Positions 3,897-44,675 of a DNA stretch of 64,000 nucleotides are shown here, piece by piece; the first letter of the stretch is position 1, and every line of letters begins with the position of its first letter. This DNA is from an uncultured Bacillales bacterium. Its GTDB lineage: Bacteria > Bacillota_I > Bacilli_A > RF39 > UBA660. The notes under the pieces were generated by a model, which saw nothing but the letters and a program-made list of their open reading frames with translations, was not told the DNA's origin and did not search any database. Made by a program: the position numbers and the translations under genes. The stretch spans positions 3,198 through 67,197 of the forward strand of contig CAJLIR010000001.1 in assembly GCA_905206805.1 (NCBI GenBank). The letters run 5' to 3'.

Positions 3897-6206
3897 ATGT
3901 TGCAAATAAAAAATGTAAAAAAAAGTTATATAACTGGTACATTTATACAACATGCATTAAAAGGTGTGAGTCTAGATTTTCGTAAAAATGAATTTGTAGC
4001 TATTTTAGGACCAAGTGGTAGTGGAAAAACGACTCTTTTAAATATTATTGGTGGACTTGATCGCTACGATGAGGGTGATTTAGTTATAAATAATAAGTCA
4101 ACCAAAAAATTTAAAGATACTGAATGGGATGCTTATAGAAATAATTGTATAGGATTTATTTTTCAAAGTTATAATTTAATTTCACATATTACGGTATTAG
4201 AAAATGTTGAAATGGGCATGACTTTAAGTGGAGTTAGTGCCAAAAAAAGAAGAAAAAAAGCACTCGAGGTACTTGATAGAGTAGGTTTAAAGGAACATGC
4301 TCATAAAAAGCCAAATCAATTATCCGGAGGTCAAATGCAAAGGGTTGCGATTGCCCGTGCTCTTGCAAATGATCCAGATATTATATTAGCAGATGAGCCA
4401 ACTGGAGCACTTGATTCTAAAACAAGTGTTCAGATTATGGAATTGATTTCAGAAATTGCTAAAGATAAATTAGTTATTATGGTTACTCATAATCCAGAGT
4501 TAGCTAAAAATTATGCAACAAGAATAATTGAACTTAAAGATGGTGAACTTATAAGCGATTCTAATCCAATTAAGGAAGAAGAAAAAAATAATAAAAAATT
4601 CAATATTAAAAAAACAGCAATGAATTTTAGAACTGCACTAAATTTATCTTTTAATAATATAAAAACAAAGAAAGGAAGAACTTTATTAACTGCTTTTGCA
4701 TCTAGTATAGGTATAATTGGAATTGCGTTAATTTTAGCTTTATCGAATGGATTTGATATTCAAATAGACAAATTTGAAAGAAATACCTTATCGTCATTGC
4801 CAATTATTATTTCTGAGCAATCTATGGAATTAACTGAAGAAAAGATGGCTGAAATAAATAATGATACAACTAGTGATTTAGAATCTTATTCGAGTGAAGA
4901 ATATATATACCCTACAAAACCTGCAACAGAAACATTTATGCATACCAATTTATTTGATAAAGATTATATTGATTATATAGAAAAGATAGATAATGATTTA
5001 ATATCAGGAATATCATATACAAGAGCTACAGCTTTAAATGTTATTGGTAATGTAAATGGAACATATATGCAAGTGCCAACAAGTATGGGAGTATTTGTAT
5101 CTATTCCAAGAAAATTAGATGAATCTTCTACTAATGGTGTTATAGAAGATAATTATGATATATTAGCTGGAAGAATACCAGAAAATAAAAATGAAATTAT
5201 TTTGGTAGTTGATAGTAAAAATAGAATTTCAACGGATATTTTATCTTATTTTAATTTAGATGCTAGTGAAGAAAAAATAAAATTTGATGATATTTTAAAT
5301 AAAGAATTAAAATTAGTTTTAAATAATGACTACTATAAACAAGTTGGTGATTTTTATACTTTAAATACTAATTATGAAGAATTATATAATAGTGAAAATT
5401 CTGAAACACTAAAAATTGTTGGTATTGGTCGTGGACGTGAAGGAAATATGTTGGTTGCGTCTGGATATGGCTTAGGTTATACTGAAGATTTAGTTAATTA
5501 TGTTATTGAAAAAAACAAAAATTCTGATATTGTAAAAAAACAAAGCGATGTAGATTATAATGTTTTAACTGGCAGCAAATTTGCGGGCGATGATGCTGAA
5601 AGTGAAAAAAACAATATGTTATCTTACCTAGGAGCTGATATAATCCCACTTGCAATTAGTATCTATCCTAAAGATTTTGATTCGAAAGATGAAATAATTT
5701 CTTATCTTGATAAATATAATGAATCTAAAAGTGATGAAGAAAAAATAATATATACTGATATGGGACAAATGATTTCTTCACTATCTGGTAGTATTATGTC
5801 AGCAATTACAGTTGTTTTAATCGCATTTTCTTCTATATCACTAATAGTTTCATCTATTATGATTGGAATAATTACTTATATTTCAGTGTTAGAGCGAACT
5901 AAAGAAATTGGTGTTTTGAGGGCTTTAGGTGCTAGAAAGAAAGACATAAGAAGAGTATTTAATGCAGAAACATTTATAATCGGAATTTGCTCTGGAACAC
6001 TTGGAATTATAATAGCAAGAATCCTAGTAATACCTGCAAATATAATTATAAAAAATTTAACTGATTTAAAAGATGTTGCTCAATTAAATCCGGTTCATGC
6101 AATTTTACTTATTGTAATAAGTGTGTTATTAACGGTTATTGGTGGTGCAATTCCAGCAAGAGTTGCAAGTCGTAAAGATCCAGTTGAATCTTTAAGAAGT
6201 GAATAA
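3897..6206 (+). CDS. Fused ABC transporter: ATP-binding domain plus FtsX-type permease domain (MacB-like).
   Basis: Walker A GPSGSGKTT, ABC signature LSGGQMQR and Walker B ILADEPTGALD are present. The C-terminal half has several TM helices with an FtsX-like extracellular-domain arrangement. RBS AGGAGG precedes the start. Confidence 0.85.
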   Translation: MLQIKNVKKSYITGTFIQHALKGVSLDFRKNEFVAILGPSGSGKTTLLNIIGGLDRYDEGDLVINNKSTKKFKDTEWDAYRNNCIGFIFQSYNLISHITVLENVEMGMTLSGVSAKKRRKKALEVLDRVGLKEHAHKKPNQLSGGQMQRVAIARALANDPDIILADEPTGALDSKTSVQIMELISEIAKDKLVIMVTHNPELAKNYATRIIELKDGELISDSNPIKEEEKNNKKFNIKKTAMNFRTALNLSFNNIKTKKGRTLLTAFASSIGIIGIALILALSNGFDIQIDKFERNTLSSLPIIISEQSMELTEEKMAEINNDTTSDLESYSSEEYIYPTKPATETFMHTNLFDKDYIDYIEKIDNDLISGISYTRATALNVIGNVNGTYMQVPTSMGVFVSIPRKLDESSTNGVIEDNYDILAGRIPENKNEIILVVDSKNRISTDILSYFNLDASEEKIKFDDILNKELKLVLNNDYYKQVGDFYTLNTNYEELYNSENSETLKIVGIGRGREGNMLVASGYGLGYTEDLVNYVIEKNKNSDIVKKQSDVDYNVLTGSKFAGDDAESEKNNMLSYLGADIIPLAISIYPKDFDSKDEIISYLDKYNESKSDEEKIIYTDMGQMISSLSGSIMSAITVVLIAFSSISLIVSSIMIGIITYISVLERTKEIGVLRALGARKKDIRRVFNAETFIIGICSGTLGIIIARILVIPANIIIKNLTDLKDVAQLNPVHAILLIVISVLLTVIGGAIPARVASRKDPVESLRSE

Positions 6207-6816: not shown

Positions 6817-6893
6817 GTCCTCGTAGCTCAGTAGGATAGAGCGAGTGCCTCCTAAGCACTAGGCCGTTGGTTCGATTCCAATCGGGGACGCCA
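6817..6893 (+). tRNA. tRNA-Arg with anticodon CCT.
   Basis: Cloverleaf read by eye. Acceptor GTCCTCG/CGGGGAC, D-arm GCTC/GAGC, anticodon stem AGTGC/GCACT with loop CTCCTAA (anticodon CCT), T-arm GTTGG-TTCGATT-CCAAT, and an encoded CCA. Confidence 0.85.
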
Positions 6894-7218
6894 TGTTGAT
6901 ATAAAAGGCTTGTCAAAAGTTTTTTAATTATTAGTACTTAATCTATGAGATTGAGTGCTATTTTTCTTATATGGGTTACTTTTTATCAATTCAAGCGATT
7001 GAACTCTTTGTATCTCATATTTTTTCATCACGCCTGTTATATAGTACCAAACCCTTATATTCAAAAATTAGAACAATAAAAATGAGTTAGGTGGAAATGA
7101 ATATAATAACTCCTGATATAATTTGCCTAAATTGAATGACAAATGTTAAAAGTTTCAACTTTTTCAATTTACTTACCTACATTATACGTGATAAAATAAG
7201 AAATTAGTTGGTGATAAT

Positions 7219-8121
7219 ATGTATAAAAGCAATGTGAATTTTAACTCATACAAAATTTTTTACGAAGTAGCAACAAGTGAAAGTATATCTGATGCTTCTA
7301 AAAAATTATTTATAACACAGTCTGCAGTAAGTAAAGCTATAAAAAAACTTGAAGAAGATTTAAATACTAACTTATTTTATAGAAATAGAAATGGTGTTAA
7401 ATTAACTGATAAAGGCATACAACTTCTTTTTTATGTTAAAGAAGCATTTAATAATTTAATTACTGCAGAAAGGGCAATTATTGAAAGTAAATCTTTGAAT
7501 CAAGGAAAAATTTCTATAGGTGTACCATCACAAATAGGATCTTTCTTTATTTTTGAAAATATTACACAATTTCATAAAAAGTTTCCAAATATAGAAATTA
7601 CAATTATTAGTAAAACCACTACTCAGTTATTAAAATTATTAGAACAACACGAACTTGATTTCATAATAGATACATCTCCAATTAATACAAATATAGATAA
7701 TGTTGTAATTAAACCATTAAAGAAAGTTGAAAGTTGTTTTGCCGTAAAAAAGGATACTGAATTTAATATTAAGGATATTAAAAATATTAATGATTTGAAA
7801 AAATTTCCTTTAGTATTACCAGTAAAAGGTGCATATAATAGACGACAACTCGATAAATTTTTTGAGAAAAACAATTTTGAACCTAATAATGTTATTAATA
7901 TTCATACTAGTGAAATGATAGTTGGCGCAATAAAAAAGGATTTAGGTATTGGCTACATAATTTATGATGTAATTAAAGATAATGTAGAAAATGGTGAGTT
8001 TCAAATTATAAAATTTATAGAAGATTTACCGAAAACAGAAATAAATTTAGTTTATATAGAAAAATATTTAACTATTGCTCCTAAATATTTTATAGAAGAA
8101 TATTTAAAAATTCATATATAA
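7219..8121 (+). CDS. LysR-family transcriptional regulator.
   Basis: N-terminal helix-turn-helix (SISDASKKLFITQSAVSKAIKKLEEDL) followed by a LysR substrate-binding-type C-terminal domain. Length is 300 aa. Confidence 0.85.
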   Translation: MYKSNVNFNSYKIFYEVATSESISDASKKLFITQSAVSKAIKKLEEDLNTNLFYRNRNGVKLTDKGIQLLFYVKEAFNNLITAERAIIESKSLNQGKISIGVPSQIGSFFIFENITQFHKKFPNIEITIISKTTTQLLKLLEQHELDFIIDTSPINTNIDNVVIKPLKKVESCFAVKKDTEFNIKDIKNINDLKKFPLVLPVKGAYNRRQLDKFFEKNNFEPNNVINIHTSEMIVGAIKKDLGIGYIIYDVIKDNVENGEFQIIKFIEDLPKTEINLVYIEKYLTIAPKYFIEEYLKIHI

Positions 8122-8202
8122 TTTTATATGAATTTTTTTCATGATAACTATGAATATTATAGAGGATTTTATATTATGTTGTGATGTTATAATTAATTTG
8201 AG

Positions 8203-9342
8203 GTGTTAAACATGGAAAGAAATAAAACAACAAATATTGCGTTATTTGCAAAATCATTTTATTTGCTAGGAGATAGCTTAAATTTTTGTTATGATTGCAA
8301 ATACTGTAGATTGAATTATGAAAAATGTACCGAAAAACATTATAATATATTGCCAAGTGAAATAAACCCAATTTTTACAAATATACCGATTGCGATAAAT
8401 TTATTTTATGGTGATCCTTTATTACAAATTGAGAATACAATAAATTATTTGGAAATGTTAGAAAAAGTTAAACATAAAGGACCTGTTATAATTATAACAA
8501 AGGGTGATTTTAAAAAATTTCCAGATATAAAATTTGATCTAGATTTGCATGTAGCTTTTTCTACATTTGGAATAGATTCAGAACTTGATGGTAATACCAT
8601 GGAAAGATTTATAAATAATTTAAAAGAAACAAAAAATAGAAAAAATAATTATAAATACTCAATAGAATTTAGACCAATTATCTATAATATTAATGATTCT
8701 TATGAAGTATTTGATAGGATATTAAGTCTTGCAAGTGAATATGATTTAGCAATAGGTTATTCAGGATTACAGGGCAAACCTGAAAGTGTTAAAATTTGGG
8801 AAAGAGATAAAATTGAATTGAGTCCATACCCTGGATTTCAGTTTGGTCATAAAAAAATCATCGACGAAAAAGTTATAAATTTGTTTGAAAAAATGGCACA
8901 ACAGAAAAATGTACCAATATTTAGAAAAACTTCTTGCTTATTTTCTTATGTTCATAATTTAGAAAGAGACTATAATGCTCATTATTATAGACCTAATGAA
9001 ATGGGTTGTCATAATTGTGTAATGAATAATAAATGTCAAAATTTTAAGAATAGTTTGTCACAAAATGTTAATTTATCAAATATAATTCCTTTTCAATATG
9101 AAATTATTAATAAGAAAAAACATGAATGCATTTTAAAAAAATCTGGTGTCTGCAATTTTCCAACTGATGATTGTAGTAATATAAATGGAAATCTTATTCA
9201 TATCCCAGAAATTATTAGTATTTCAGATGTAAGATTAATTAAGTGGTTAACAGGTTATACAGTTGATGCAAATTTTTTTGAATCTTATGAAATGAGTGAA
9301 AAATGGGTAACAAATAAATCTTTGATTTTAAAAAGAAAATAA
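8203..9342 (+). CDS. Cys-rich hypothetical protein, radical-SAM-like, with a non-canonical CxxCxxC motif.
   Basis: CYDCKYC lies at residues about 29-35. A GDPLL motif follows about 40 residues later, in the position of the radical-SAM GGEPLL glycine-rich motif. Extra C-terminal Cys clusters are present (CHNCVMNNKC and CILKKSGVCNFPTDDC). No confident family assignment is possible. Confidence 0.35.
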   Translation: MLNMERNKTTNIALFAKSFYLLGDSLNFCYDCKYCRLNYEKCTEKHYNILPSEINPIFTNIPIAINLFYGDPLLQIENTINYLEMLEKVKHKGPVIIITKGDFKKFPDIKFDLDLHVAFSTFGIDSELDGNTMERFINNLKETKNRKNNYKYSIEFRPIIYNINDSYEVFDRILSLASEYDLAIGYSGLQGKPESVKIWERDKIELSPYPGFQFGHKKIIDEKVINLFEKMAQQKNVPIFRKTSCLFSYVHNLERDYNAHYYRPNEMGCHNCVMNNKCQNFKNSLSQNVNLSNIIPFQYEIINKKKHECILKKSGVCNFPTDDCSNINGNLIHIPEIISISDVRLIKWLTGYTVDANFFESYEMSEKWVTNKSLILKRK

Positions 9343-9417: not shown

Positions 9418-9684
9418 ATGAAAAATCGAATTATAATTGTGGAAGGATTACCATCTACTGGTAAGAGTACAACTACTAAATATATAGCTGAAAATCTAAA
9501 TATAAAATTTGTTGATGAAAGTGATGAAAATCATCCTGCTGATTATGTATATAGGGATTTTATTAACAATAAAATATTAAAAAAATTAGGAATAAATTAT
9601 ATTGTTATAGAAAGTGATCATAAGAACTTTAATAAATCGTATAAAAAAATAATGAGTTGTATTGAAAATTATAGTAGAAAATGA
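9418..9684 (+). CDS. Small P-loop NTPase, nucleotide-kinase-like fragment.
   Basis: Walker A motif GLPSTGKST. Only 88 aa, and it ends 12 nt before the next ORF, so a split gene is possible. Confidence 0.4.
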   Translation: MKNRIIIVEGLPSTGKSTTTKYIAENLNIKFVDESDENHPADYVYRDFINNKILKKLGINYIVIESDHKNFNKSYKKIMSCIENYSRK

Positions 9685-9695
9685 GGTAACAATAT

Positions 9696-10544
9696 ATGAT
9701 AAAAGATAAATATGAATTGCTTTTAAAACTTATATTAAAAATAGAAGCTGCTTATCAATTATTTTTCTATGATGAATTTAATGATTATTATTTATGTTTA
9801 GACGAAATTATGATTTTACTTGATGAATTAAAATTAAATAATAACGATCTTTGTTATTTAAAAAATATTAATCATCAAATATTTATTGATAGAAAATATT
9901 TTAATAATAAATTTGAAAATAATAAACATAGGTTATTTATAGAAAAAAATATAAATAATTGTAATGAAAAGAAATTAAACTTTGATTTTGATTTGATAAA
10001 AAAATACATAACAAATAATTATTATATATTTAACTTTTTAGATAATCCTAGTGAAAATGAAATTGAAGAACTTGCAATTTTAAATCCGAATGTCTTGTAT
10101 TTAGTCTTAAAAATAAATAACAAAATGTTATTAAATGTTTTAAAGAAAAACTATAAGGCCTCAGCGATACTTGATGGATATATTGTTTTAGATTGTAATG
10201 ATACTTGTGGTGATCAATTTTATGTTGATGATTATGCCTATAAAGATTCATATATTACAAAAAATAAAACAAAGTTTTTAAAAAACAAAAATATATATAA
10301 CTTGTATATAAACTGTCTTAAAAAATATTTATCAGATAATGTTTTAATTTACATACATTTATCTTCTTATGCTAGAAATAGTATAGAACTTGCTAGGTAT
10401 GTACTAAGTATTAATCCAAAACTATTAGTTTATACAGGTGATGATATAAAAAATAATAAAGAAATAATGAAAGATATGATTAAAATTGATAAAAATAATA
10501 CTTATTATTTAGGTAAAAAATTAAAAAATTTAAAAGAAATTTGA
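9696..10544 (+). CDS. Hypothetical protein.
   Basis: A 282-aa ORF with no recognisable motifs. It may be the C-terminal part of a gene split from 9418..9684. Confidence 0.35.
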   Translation: MIKDKYELLLKLILKIEAAYQLFFYDEFNDYYLCLDEIMILLDELKLNNNDLCYLKNINHQIFIDRKYFNNKFENNKHRLFIEKNINNCNEKKLNFDFDLIKKYITNNYYIFNFLDNPSENEIEELAILNPNVLYLVLKINNKMLLNVLKKNYKASAILDGYIVLDCNDTCGDQFYVDDYAYKDSYITKNKTKFLKNKNIYNLYINCLKKYLSDNVLIYIHLSSYARNSIELARYVLSINPKLLVYTGDDIKNNKEIMKDMIKIDKNNTYYLGKKLKNLKEI

Positions 10545-10593
10545 TTAATTATTAAAAATATGTTATTTTATAATCAATTAAAGAGGTGTATTT

Positions 10594-11025
10594 ATGAGAG
10601 AATCAAAAATTAGAATAGGTTATATAATAATTAATCCATATTGGAGGGAAGAATTAGAAAGAGGTAAAAGTCATTCAAAAACCGCGTCTGAATGGATAAA
10701 TAGGTATAATTTTCAAAATATTTTTAACACTTTATTGGAAGAAAAAAAGGTGATAGATGAAGAAGATTTTTTAATGAATTATATAGGTGCAGTAAAGTTA
10801 TGTGCTTACCGTGGTAAATTTTATTGTTATTTGCCATCAGTTGTAAATGATGATAAAGAATATATTAAGAATTATTATGAAAATTTAGGATATATTATAA
10901 TTGAAGGAAAAATTTTCGATGAGGAAAAATATAAAGAAAAAACGATTTACAATTATCCATATAATAAAACTTTAATAAAGGTAAGAAACTCATATCACCA
11001 TAATCCAATGCGTAATGGTGATTAA
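10594..11025 (+). CDS. Hypothetical protein.
   Basis: A 143-aa ORF with a GAGGTG RBS and no recognised motif. Confidence 0.35.
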   Translation: MRESKIRIGYIIINPYWREELERGKSHSKTASEWINRYNFQNIFNTLLEEKKVIDEEDFLMNYIGAVKLCAYRGKFYCYLPSVVNDDKEYIKNYYENLGYIIIEGKIFDEEKYKEKTIYNYPYNKTLIKVRNSYHHNPMRNGD

Positions 11026-11034
11026 AAGGAAGTT

Positions 11035-11391
11035 ATGGTTAATAGAGATATTGAGATTATTTTGAGTGAATTATCAAAATCAAAATTTAGAAATAGTTTT
11101 AAATTAAAAAATAAAGATATAGAATACATAAATACTAAAGGCTTTGATACTATAGAAAAACATGCATATGATTTTATAAAAAAAAGAATATCACCTAGTG
11201 TGATATTAAATGATGGCAAACAAACTCCAATGAAAGGACACCCTGTTTTTATCGCTCAACATGCTACAGCTACGTGTTGTAGAAATTGTTTATATAAGTG
11301 GCACAAAATTGAACCTGGTAGAGATTTATCTTCTGATGAGGAAAAATATATAGTAGATTTAATTATGGAATGGCTTAAAAGAAATATTTAG
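11035..11391 (+). CDS. Conserved hypothetical protein, DUF4186-like.
   Basis: The motif HATATCCRNCLYKWH resembles the conserved core I recall for the DUF4186 family. Length is 118 aa. Confidence 0.45.
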   Translation: MVNRDIEIILSELSKSKFRNSFKLKNKDIEYINTKGFDTIEKHAYDFIKKRISPSVILNDGKQTPMKGHPVFIAQHATATCCRNCLYKWHKIEPGRDLSSDEEKYIVDLIMEWLKRNI

Positions 11392-43146: not shown

Positions 43147-43162
43147 AATAGAGTAGGGAATA

Positions 43163-43192
43163 ATAAAAAGAGACATTTGTCTCTTTATTTGG
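43163..43192. terminator. Rho-independent terminator after zupT.
   Basis: AAAGAGACA-ttt-GTCTCTTT followed by ATTT. Confidence 0.6.
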
Positions 43193-43194
43193 GT

Positions 43195-43361
43195 TATCTG
43201 CAATCTTTATTATCAAAATTATTGTTTTTGCAGTTAGTAATTATATTGTTTGATTCATTAGTAAATCCAACATTGTCATTATGACGAGCATTACTGTTAG
43301 CTGTGTTACTAATTTTATTATTTTTAGTAGCTTTTGATTGCATTTTACTATTCTTTTTCAT
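43195..43361 (-). CDS. Possible small N/K-rich protein of 55 aa.
   Basis: ATG with an upstream GGGTGA RBS, translating to MKKNSKMQSKATKNNKISNTANSNARHNDNVGFTNESNNIITNCKNNNFDNKDCR. Not in the ORF track because it is under 60 aa. Confidence 0.25.
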
Positions 43362-43413
43362 TCTTGATCACCCAATAATATTATTAACCATTATCAATTA
43401 AATATTCATTTTT

Positions 43414-43529
43414 TATGCAAATAAAATTAAAATTAAAATTGTAATGACTATTGTTGCTATAATTAATGCTAAAAAGGCGTACAATAATTTTCCTACACTA
43501 GAACGTATAATACTTTTAATATATTCCAT
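43414..43529 (-). CDS. Possible 38-aa hydrophobic peptide (small membrane protein or type I toxin-like).
   Basis: RBS AAGGAAG lies 9 nt upstream of the ATG. Translation MEYIKSIIRSSVGKLLYAFLALIIATIVITILILILFA. Confidence 0.3.
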
Positions 43530-43898
43530 TTTTAAATCTTCCTTATTATCATTAGTTAACATAATATAAATTATACGAAGTAAATAATATAATCATTTAT
43601 ATATATATGTTAATCAAATCATTAATATAAAACCAATTAATATTACTATATAAATATATATAATTTTTTAATAAAATTATATATTATGAACATAATATTA
43701 ATATCTTACTATGTATATAATAATTCATAAAATACTATATTTATTTAACAAATTTTACTGCTAAATATCATTTAAATTAATATAATTAATATAATAGATG
43801 TATTATAATTCAACTACAATAATTATTTTGTTAAAACTCTAGTAAAACATCAATAAAAACTAATAGGGGACATTTATATATAATTCCCCTATTTTCTA

Positions 43899-44675
43899 TT
43901 AATTTACTTTTCTAGATTGAATTTCAGCTATTTTTTCAAAAACTTCTGCTGCATTTTGACTACTAATTTCATTATAACCAAGTTCTCTTAATGCTTGAAC
44001 TTTTATTGTGTTTAATTCAAGTGTACGACTCATTTTTTCTTCCATCTTATGTTCAATTTGATTTACAAAACGTTTATGAGATTCAGCCAATCTAGTTTTA
44101 GAAGCACCACCATTATTATATAAGGACATTGCTGAGAACATTATACTTTCAAAAATAAATTGTTCATCTTCATTAAATGCAAATTCAGTTGGTTTAATTG
44201 CTCCGGTAGCTTTAGCCATATAAGCCAAAATATATTTTAGTTCTTTACTTGTTTCCATAGTTTGTAAATAATAATACAAATATCTATAAGCATTATATGT
44301 ATCTGAATCATTATCATCATCAAGATTTTCCCTTAATAATTCAATTATATTATGCAATAATTCTTTTTGCTTTTTTCCAATTCCATTATATAAATTACTA
44401 TCTACAACTTCACTTTTTTGAGAATTATCAAATAAACTATTTAACCTTGTTTCGACACTTAAAATATAATCTGTGTCTACTTTTATATTCTGAACATCTT
44501 CTGCTGATTTAACCCCTAATAAATTTAGTAATAAAACTTTTTTATCTTTTGGCCATTTATTAATATCATCTAACTCCAAATAATTATAAATCATTTGTCT
44601 TGATACACCTAATACTTTTGCTAATTTAACTTTTGATATTCCTAGTTCGTGTAATATATCATTTAGTCTATTCAT
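43899..44675 (-). CDS. XRE-family helix-turn-helix transcriptional regulator with an uncharacterised C-terminal domain.
   Basis: N-terminal HTH LNDILHELGISKVKLAKVLGVSRQMIYNYLE. RBS AGGAGGG precedes the ATG at 44675. Confidence 0.75.
   Translation of the reverse strand: MNRLNDILHELGISKVKLAKVLGVSRQMIYNYLELDDINKWPKDKKVLLLNLLGVKSAEDVQNIKVDTDYILSVETRLNSLFDNSQKSEVVDSNLYNGIGKKQKELLHNIIELLRENLDDDNDSDTYNAYRYLYYYLQTMETSKELKYILAYMAKATGAIKPTEFAFNEDEQFIFESIMFSAMSLYNNGGASKTRLAESHKRFVNQIEHKMEEKMSRTLELNTIKVQALRELGYNEISSQNAAEVFEKIAEIQSRKVN

Follow-up and report, generated by a model that had tools for sequence, protein, structure and literature searches.

A putative radical SAM gene and its cysteine motifs

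The 64,000-nucleotide (nt) stretch of DNA analyzed here, referred to as the window, comes from contig CAJLIR010000001.1 of an uncultured Bacillales bacterium and has a G+C content of ~24%. It encodes a cysteine-rich protein of 376 amino acids (aa) that resembles radical S-adenosylmethionine (SAM) enzymes and carries three closely spaced cysteines in the arrangement CX2CX2C rather than the canonical CX3CX2C. The initial annotation had placed an open reading frame (ORF) at positions 8203..9342 of the forward strand. This ORF is present, and its start is likely the ATG at 8212 rather than the GTG at 8203, because a GAGGTG sequence is suitably spaced before the ATG, the equivalent methionine is the N-terminus of all homologues (alignment A1), and the exact 376-aa product is recorded on 15 public contigs. 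Those public records give the protein no name other than "hypothetical protein." The features of the gene are as follows.

8212..9342, + strand: radical-SAM-like coding sequence of 376 aa, stop codon included, defined from the ORF, the homologue N-termini, and the exact product in public records
8203, + strand: GTG, in-frame alternative start upstream of ATG 8212, used in the initial annotation
8200..8205, + strand: Shine-Dalgarno-like GAGGTG, 6 nt before ATG 8212, read from the sequence
8287..8307, + strand: CX2CX2C loop, C26-Y-D-C29-K-Y31-C32, invariant in A1 and aligned to the CX3CX2C of the canonical clade
8410..8424, + strand: G67-D-P-L-L71, at the end of predicted strand 2, in the probable place of the GGE/"GEPL" motif that binds the SAM amino group
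8935..9036, + strand: first auxiliary cysteine group, C242 (TSC motif) and C266-x2-C269-x5-C275, a candidate fourth-ligand-complete iron-sulfur (Fe-S) or zinc site
9127..9174, + strand: second auxiliary cysteine group, C306-x7-C314-x6-C321, in a small strand-rich C-terminal domain

Residue numbers refer to the 376-aa product; those of the initial annotation run 3 higher.

A search covering 5.8 billion proteins returned 429 homologues, and motif conservation was counted in a close set of 119 full-length proteins with 65 to 99% identity. The CxxCx[YFW]C pattern is kept in 119/119 of these and YGD[P/S] in 118/119, while the two auxiliary patterns, C-x23-CxxC-x5-C and C-x7-C-x6-C, are each kept in all 119. 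All ten cysteines are invariant columns of alignment A1. Y31, the aromatic residue before the third cysteine, is also invariant in A1, and the equivalent tyrosine is invariant both in permuted relatives (alignment A3) and in a clade with the canonical motif (alignment A5). Across a wider alignment of 56 full-length representatives (A2), R154, P155, N161, C242, C269, and C275 are invariant, canonical clade included, and D68, P69, G185, and K215 are nearly so. The C306/C314/C321 group is invariant in A1 and occurs, with more cysteines, in the other CX2CX2C clades; the canonical clade is without it.

These counts bear out what had been read from the single sequence: that the CYDCKYC cluster has the spacing CX2CX2C and not CX3CX2C, that a GDPLL motif lies downstream of it (residues 67 to 71, beginning 35 residues past C32), and that two more cysteine clusters sit in the C-terminal half. 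The CxxCxxC and GDP motifs also stay together as a pair among the close homologues, a check that had been proposed for the radical SAM assignment. Judged by these alignments, the motif observation is real and under selection, and the seven further conserved cysteines make auxiliary Fe-S clusters plausible.

Homology to radical SAM families

The initial annotation could assign the protein to no family, and curated collections agree. The query matches nothing in Pfam (0 families at E values up to 1), NCBIfam, PHROG, or PADLOC, and a PDB sequence search, run with the query alone or with the A1 profile, also returned no match. The relatives are more informative. An exhaustive hidden Markov model search with the A1 profile against 1.84 billion cluster representatives identified 187 clusters, among which the 56 full-length ones constitute A2. 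Aligned with hhalign to the canonical CX3CX2C sister clade (A5), the A1 profile gives a probability of 99.86% and an E value of 4.7e-31 over 306 columns. The Pfam Radical_SAM model (PF04055) is matched by 21 of the 56 family members, and many proteins of the canonical sister clade match it, the best match being that of P0140 (1.8e-16), whose score sums two stretches, with the top-scoring one (110-261) corresponding to its CX2CX2C domain and its second domain being canonical. The CX2CX2C members P0134 and P0280 have precomputed PF04055 matches, and the JGI record for P0276, also a CX2CX2C member, bears the name "DNA repair photolyase." The link of the query to PF04055 is transitive, running via these relatives and the hhalign alignment.

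Weak NCBIfam matches among the 56 members point to PA0069 (31/56), Rv2578c (19/56), and radical SAM mobile pair protein B (11/56). The best E values for PA0069 and Rv2578c, 8.3e-13 and 4.9e-10, belong to relatives and correspond to scores far below the curated cutoffs of 360 and 430 bits. All three families are of the COG1533 type. PA0069 (NF033668) and Rv2578c (NF038135), which fall in the COG1533 "SplB / DNA repair photolyase" group, are the nearest curated families of the wider family. COG1533 proteins, which include spore photoproduct lyase, share a layout consisting of an N-terminal "KS...C..C.YC," a D-P motif, and an "RPI..g.ND" motif, and the wider family shows the same layout, with D-P at strand 2 and "RPI..g.ND" at strand 5. 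The differences are that PA0069 and Rv2578c have CX3CX2C, whereas the query has CX2CX2C, the extra C242/C266/C269/C275 site, and the second cysteine group. Spore photoproduct lyase itself was found neither among the PDB sequence matches of the query, A1, A2, and A5 nor among the best 50 Foldseek matches. The wide family profile does align its "ygDPf" with the "GEPLa" SAM motif of PDB entry 6y1x, in a weak match (E = 0.007) that lends some support to the initial placement of GDPLL.

Predicted fold

An AlphaFold2 model built from alignment A1 has a mean predicted local distance difference test (pLDDT) score of 79.9 and a predicted template modeling score (pTM) of 0.84. Alternating strand-helix units span residues 60 to ~200, and a helical linker leads from them to the small strand-rich C-terminal domain; YGDPLL comes after a predicted strand at residues 60 to 63. 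The best Foldseek match in the PDB is the pyruvate formate-lyase (PFL)-activating enzyme 3c8f (E = 4.8e-4, probability 1.00, 257 columns, 14% identity), with a template modeling (TM) score of 0.59 normalized to the target and 0.41 normalized to the query. The next matches are a radical SAM methyltransferase, DesII, TigE, lysine 2,3-aminomutase, lipoyl synthase (LIAS), and biotin synthase (BioB). In the BFVD, a viral PFL-activating enzyme ranks first (2.3e-4), followed by radical SAM core proteins. A partial or full (beta/alpha) TIM-like barrel core is predicted on these grounds, and the test proposed in the initial annotation, Foldseek on an AlphaFold model, found the barrel with radical SAM enzymes on top. 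The likeness to the PFL-activating enzyme has limits: the query has ~130 extra C-terminal residues with seven conserved cysteines, and no glycyl-radical enzyme partner is encoded in its neighborhood.

The same results bear on the simplest competing explanation, that the cysteine motifs are zinc ribbons or belong to an unrelated fold and that the likeness to radical SAM enzymes is accidental. In its favor, zinc sites often contain CxxC pairs, and no family matches the query directly. No zinc ribbon or other competing fold appeared among the Foldseek matches, and the predicted fold, its matches, and the hhalign E value of 4.7e-31 to canonical relatives already contradict this explanation, to which we give next to no credence. 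The combined evidence from profile homology and the model supports placing the protein in the radical SAM superfamily by fold and descent, though it fails the textbook motif and every curated model tried. The description "radical-SAM-like" is thus upheld at the level of predicted fold and homology to the canonical clade, and SAM chemistry would be a further step.

A contracted cluster loop

The textbook CX3CX2C motif follows strand 1. It is absent from the query, in which CX2CX2C occupies the position equivalent to the CX3CX2C of the sister clade. Distant members read KSxLSxNxxxG-C-x3-C-x-Y-C, and the query clade reads KSFxxxGxSLxx-C-x2-C-x-Y-C. The first cysteine is shifted one position toward the second with the frame kept, because the distance from the Lys-Ser anchor to the second and third cysteines is identical in most members of both clades. 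CX2CX2C is the spacing of ferredoxin clusters.

Variants of the radical SAM cysteine motif compiled at RadicalSAM.org include CX4-, CX5-, CX6-, CX7-, CX8-, CX9-, and CX11-CX2C; the first spacing in the RadicalSAM.org variants ranges from 4 to 11 residues, with none below 3 (PMC9477430). ThiC has CX2CX4C. The present family resembles these variants in having three cysteines in one loop and in tolerating a change of spacing. It differs in direction, as the listed variants lengthen the first spacing, whereas the CX2CX2C family shortens it to two residues, as in ferredoxins. Full-text literature searches, which are a sample and not proof of absence, found no description of a radical SAM enzyme with CX2CX2C. 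The arrangement looks undescribed, because all of the RadicalSAM.org variants are longer in the first spacing.

Circularly permuted relatives and paired modules

At least 13 cluster representatives (P0157, P0158, P0163, P0168, P0171, P0172, P0178, P0186, P0190, P0195, P0197, P0206, and P0213, forming A3) match the family profile in two blocks of reversed order, with profile positions 50-350 aligned to residues 5-305 and positions 13-55 aligned to residues 340-380. These proteins start with "IPVxINNxYGDP," which corresponds to strand 2, and end with "NSWWxxxxxxxKC[YF]xC[SK]YC." By sequence alignment, this is a circular permutation in which strand 1 and the cluster loop have been relocated to the C-terminus. 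An AlphaFold model of P0163 (pLDDT, 82.5; pTM, 0.85) has its best matches to radical SAM enzymes, first SkfB (3.7e-5) and then the PFL-activating enzyme, NifB, SuiB, and viperin, and the permuted clade is predicted to still form the barrel. Shorter relatives of about 303 to 344 aa (P0196, P0214, P0220, P0230, P0232, P0240, and P0256) have a canonical CX3CX2C near the C-terminus, so the permutation occurs independently of the shortened motif. The permuted relatives fall outside all Pfam and NCBIfam models; in weak matches, the N-termini of the shorter ones line up with the central part of the PF04055 and PA0069 profiles. A rough neighbor-joining tree of the motif-free core, without support values and therefore indicative, separates the canonical proteins from all CX2CX2C proteins and groups the permuted ones in one clade. 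Three loci with permuted relatives (first three lines) and four sites of a module that recurs in the distant CX2CX2C clades (last four lines) are as follows.

L054, 8001-9155: permuted relative
L056, 1199-2359: permuted relative
L076, 5962-7110: permuted relative
L056, 3-4217: module
L076, 5962-9137: module
L061, 7001-8994: module
L054, 8001-10547: module

The module is also seen in proteins P0140, P0174, and P0176. It comprises the variant or permuted protein, a canonical radical SAM protein of ~300 aa with the motif "ACPxGCxYC," and a SufS-type cysteine desulfurase, as adjacent or fused parts, which suggests a two-enzyme and possibly sulfur-handling system. The desulfurase is fused in the permuted proteins P0174 and P0176 and adjacent in L056 and L076. 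In L054, an adenylate-kinase-like gene lies 3' of the permuted one, and Fpg, UDG, and LigA are encoded within a few further genes. Other fusions occur in canonical relatives, which are joined to MazG or to nucleoside 2-deoxyribosyltransferase. The distant clades resemble radical SAM mobile pair protein B (TIGR04470) in occurring as a two-radical-SAM pair; unlike it, the query subfamily has no second radical SAM gene as a partner, and the family's matches to this model are far below the cutoff.

The pairing raises the main rival to SAM cleavage by the query, namely an Fe-S protein with the radical SAM fold that has lost SAM cleavage and whose shortened loop would hold a cluster for electron transfer or as a scaffold, or which would act as the noncatalytic partner of a canonical enzyme. 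The distant CX2CX2C proteins always adjoin, or are fused to, the canonical protein of ~300 aa, which may mean that the variant subunit does something else. The motif spacing is that of ferredoxins, and the literature searched holds no precedent for CX2CX2C in SAM cleavage. We nevertheless consider this explanation unlikely for the query: no canonical partner lies near the query subfamily or near its 14 viral homologues, and a tblastn search of the window for a second canonical radical SAM protein was negative. Strong conservation, moreover, extends to the aromatic residue before the third cysteine, to the D-P motif, and to the other residues in common with the canonical clade, unlike in a degenerating active site.

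The cysteine desulfurase leads to another explanation, that of a radical SAM enzyme that inserts sulfur, as LipA, BioB, and MiaB do, and that would thiolate a nucleotide or nucleic acid with one C-terminal cluster as the sulfur source. Besides the fused and adjacent SufS genes, it can draw on the two extra cysteine groups and on LIAS and BioB among the structural matches. Those two are no better matches than other radical SAM enzymes, SufS could merely serve cluster assembly, and no SufS gene adjoins the members of the query subfamily in 45 species-level loci or lies close to the target in the window; we regard this explanation as improbable.

A peptide-modifying maturase is brought to mind by SkfB and SuiB, top structural matches of the permuted relative. 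Such an enzyme of the type acting on ribosomally synthesized and posttranslationally modified peptides would have a SPASM- or twitch-like C-terminal domain, and the CX2CX5C element and the seven C-terminal cysteines of the query recall SPASM. Compared with the SPASM pattern, CX9-15GX4C ... CX2CX5CX3C ... C, the query has the CX2CX5C element only, with no cysteine at +4 and the remainder of the 7-Cys pattern absent. It has no SPASM, twitch, or Fer4 match in Pfam; no conserved precursor-peptide-like gene, protease, or exporter lies alongside; and the nearest curated families are of the COG1533 type, not SPASM. A maturase therefore has very little probability in our view.

Genomic neighborhood of the query subfamily

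The neighborhood was compared across the 45 species-level loci, which come from uncultured gut metagenome-assembled genomes (MAGs) of the "Bacilli / Tenericutes / Coprobacillus CAG:605" type and from two outliers. The neighboring features in the window are as follows.

6817-6893: tRNA-Arg(CCT), upstream of the LysR gene
7219..8121, + strand: LysR-family transcription regulator (Pfam HTH_1, 1.6e-18; LysR_substrate, 8.4e-28), 90 nt upstream of the target gene
9418..9684, + strand: remnant of 88 aa of a P-loop protein, after the target gene, derived by a 528-bp in-frame internal deletion from a 264-aa PRK06761-like protein

The LysR gene precedes the target in ~33/45 of the genomes and is a probable regulator of it. 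The target had been described as the first gene of a block of ORFs lying 3' of a tRNA gene. That description does not hold, as the LysR gene intervenes, and among 22 loci scanned, none has a tRNA immediately upstream of the LysR-target pair and 18 have no tRNA at all. A genomic island inserted 3' of the tRNA was considered and rejected, given the intervening LysR gene and the synteny of the LysR-target pair elsewhere without an adjacent tRNA; the tRNA adjacency is incidental.

Directly 3' of the target, 33 of the 45 loci encode a HAD-superfamily phosphatase of 207/208 aa, often with overlapping stop and start codons. It has the N-terminus MKIGLDIDGVILDFE, with the motif "DIDGVILDFE," and weak Pfam matches below the gathering scores (Hydrolase, 5.6e-5; NT5C, 1.7e-3). 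In the window's species, a P-loop kinase-like gene lies 3' of the target, as one does beside the permuted relative in L054. Two strains whose target is 99% identical retain an intact 264-aa P-loop gene (L057, 6906-7700, and L058); the protein matches the PRK06761 model of NCBIfam (NF005250) with an E value of 1.4e-49, under the model cutoff. The deletion in the window is shown by blastn; an overlap of ~14 bases between the matching pieces where they join suggests that it arose between short direct repeats.

Positions 9696-11391 (+ strand) of the window hold a run of poorly characterized genes, whose products are a 282-aa protein (DUF4116 repeat at the C-terminus), a 143-aa protein without matches, and a DUF4186 protein (2e-50). 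This run is specific to the window's species; the HAD phosphatase fills the slot in most related species.

Homologues on viral contigs

Homologues with 43 to 58% identity were found on 14 IMG/VR contigs of 55 to 545 kb (L062-L075), while 50,697 deposited phage genomes contain none. Genes of nucleotide metabolism accompany some of them. In L062, a PurZ/PurA-like synthetase (4143-5138; PDB 6fm1, 3e-50; PurZ 7odx, 4e-46) is encoded with the homologue two genes downstream, and in L070, a nucleoside 2-deoxyribosyltransferase (8453-8974; 8rh3, 3e-66) with the homologue 1.4 kb upstream. A prophage or defense origin of the window copy was considered and set aside, as PHROG and PADLOC give no support and no deposited phage matches.

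One 425,361-bp contig was deposited twice, as a contig of a "Candidatus Pacearchaeota" MAG and as an IMG/VR viral genome (L049 and L063), and could be either a huge phage or a DPANN archaeon. It also encodes, 340 nt downstream of the homologue, a "Swiss Army Knife RNA repair"-type HAD domain.

Proposed function

Taking these results together, we lean, with modest confidence, toward a divergent member of the radical SAM superfamily, from an unannotated family nearest PA0069/Rv2578c/COG1533, whose CX2CX2C cluster would cleave SAM, perhaps to act on a (deoxy)nucleotide. In this scheme, C26, C29, and C32 would ligate a [4Fe-4S] cluster in the way of the CX2CX2C of ferredoxins, one iron being left free. 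The free iron would bind SAM, and its reduction would yield a 5'-deoxyadenosyl radical that abstracts hydrogen from the substrate. An auxiliary cluster shared across the family would be held by C242, C266, C269, and C275, and C306, C314, and C321 would make up a second site confined to the CX2CX2C clades, with a role in electron transfer or in substrate or sulfur handling. The substrate could be a (deoxy)nucleotide, a nucleoside, or a nucleic-acid lesion, and it or the product might be handed to the downstream phosphatase or kinase, possibly with expression under the adjacent LysR regulator. A nucleotide or nucleic-acid substrate is weakly suggested, because the recurrent, non-constant neighbors and fusions include HAD proteins, P-loop kinases, PurZ-like synthetase, deoxyribosyltransferase, and MazG.

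Several observations weigh against SAM cleavage or its link to nucleotides. The literature searched gives no CX2CX2C radical SAM enzyme shown to cleave SAM, and the query by itself matches neither the curated family collections nor the PDB at the sequence level. Structural similarity is limited (TM 0.41 normalized to the query), and the model is least certain in the cysteine loop (pLDDT below 50 at residues 22 to 28), as expected because the model is without cofactor. In the distant CX2CX2C clades, the protein has a canonical radical SAM protein as a neighbor or fusion partner. The neighbors are not constant either: by tblastn the HAD partner is absent from the window, it is missing in about a quarter of the loci, and it has no PDB or NCBIfam match of note; no neighbor is conserved among the 14 viral loci.

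A more far-reaching version of the proposal is that the family forms an unrecognized branch of the radical SAM superfamily, shared by small-genome gut Bacilli and very large phage-like contigs, which generates its radical from a ferredoxin-type CX2CX2C cluster, includes a natural circular permutation, and carries out undescribed chemistry on (deoxy)nucleotides or on DNA/RNA lesions. We put this forward tentatively and consider it doubtful as a whole.

As to the way of working, a comparison can be drawn with viperin and the prokaryotic viperins; viperin, also a radical SAM enzyme, has a free nucleotide as its substrate, and its gene is found together with those of nucleotide kinases. The query family is similarly paired with P-loop kinases or a nucleotidase-like HAD protein. 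The comparison concerns function only: viperin has the canonical motif and no auxiliary cysteine groups, no sequence relationship between viperin and the query was detected, and the PADLOC defense models give 0 matches for the target. The queuine lyase QueL, a radical SAM enzyme of salvage, was also considered, in view of the gut habitat and the salvage context, and was not adopted, with no Q-salvage genes seen beside the target.

Radical SAM enzymes have been cataloged largely by the CX3CX2C motif and by PF04055 matches. With a kept fold, a shortened loop, and no match among the curated models tried, this family is missed by motif-based censuses. The interest for radical SAM enzymology is moderate to high and lies chiefly in the contracted loop and the permuted relatives. 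If SAM is cleaved, the cluster loop can withstand being shortened and not just lengthened, and the family would offer a natural system for studying the part played by loop geometry in setting up the unique iron; the permuted relatives, with CX2CX2C or CX3CX2C at the C-terminus, would be an uncommon case of natural rearrangement in the radical SAM core. Conservation of the gene is strong in uncultured gut Bacilli (65 to 79% identity), the gene also occurs on viral contigs among nucleotide-metabolism genes, and a step in nucleotide salvage, repair, or modification may be at stake.

Other features of the window

No terminator-like sites were found among the LysR gene, the target, and the following genes. 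A promoter scan gave 44 sites against 49 expected and is uninformative in DNA of 24% GC. A terminator-like hairpin with a T-run lies at positions 6932-6960 (+ strand), directly after tRNA-Arg(CCT). At ~43,150-43,900, gene orientation in the window changes from + to -, and the GC skew is mostly positive before ~42 kb and consistently negative after it, the pattern expected of a replication terminus or of a large inversion boundary.

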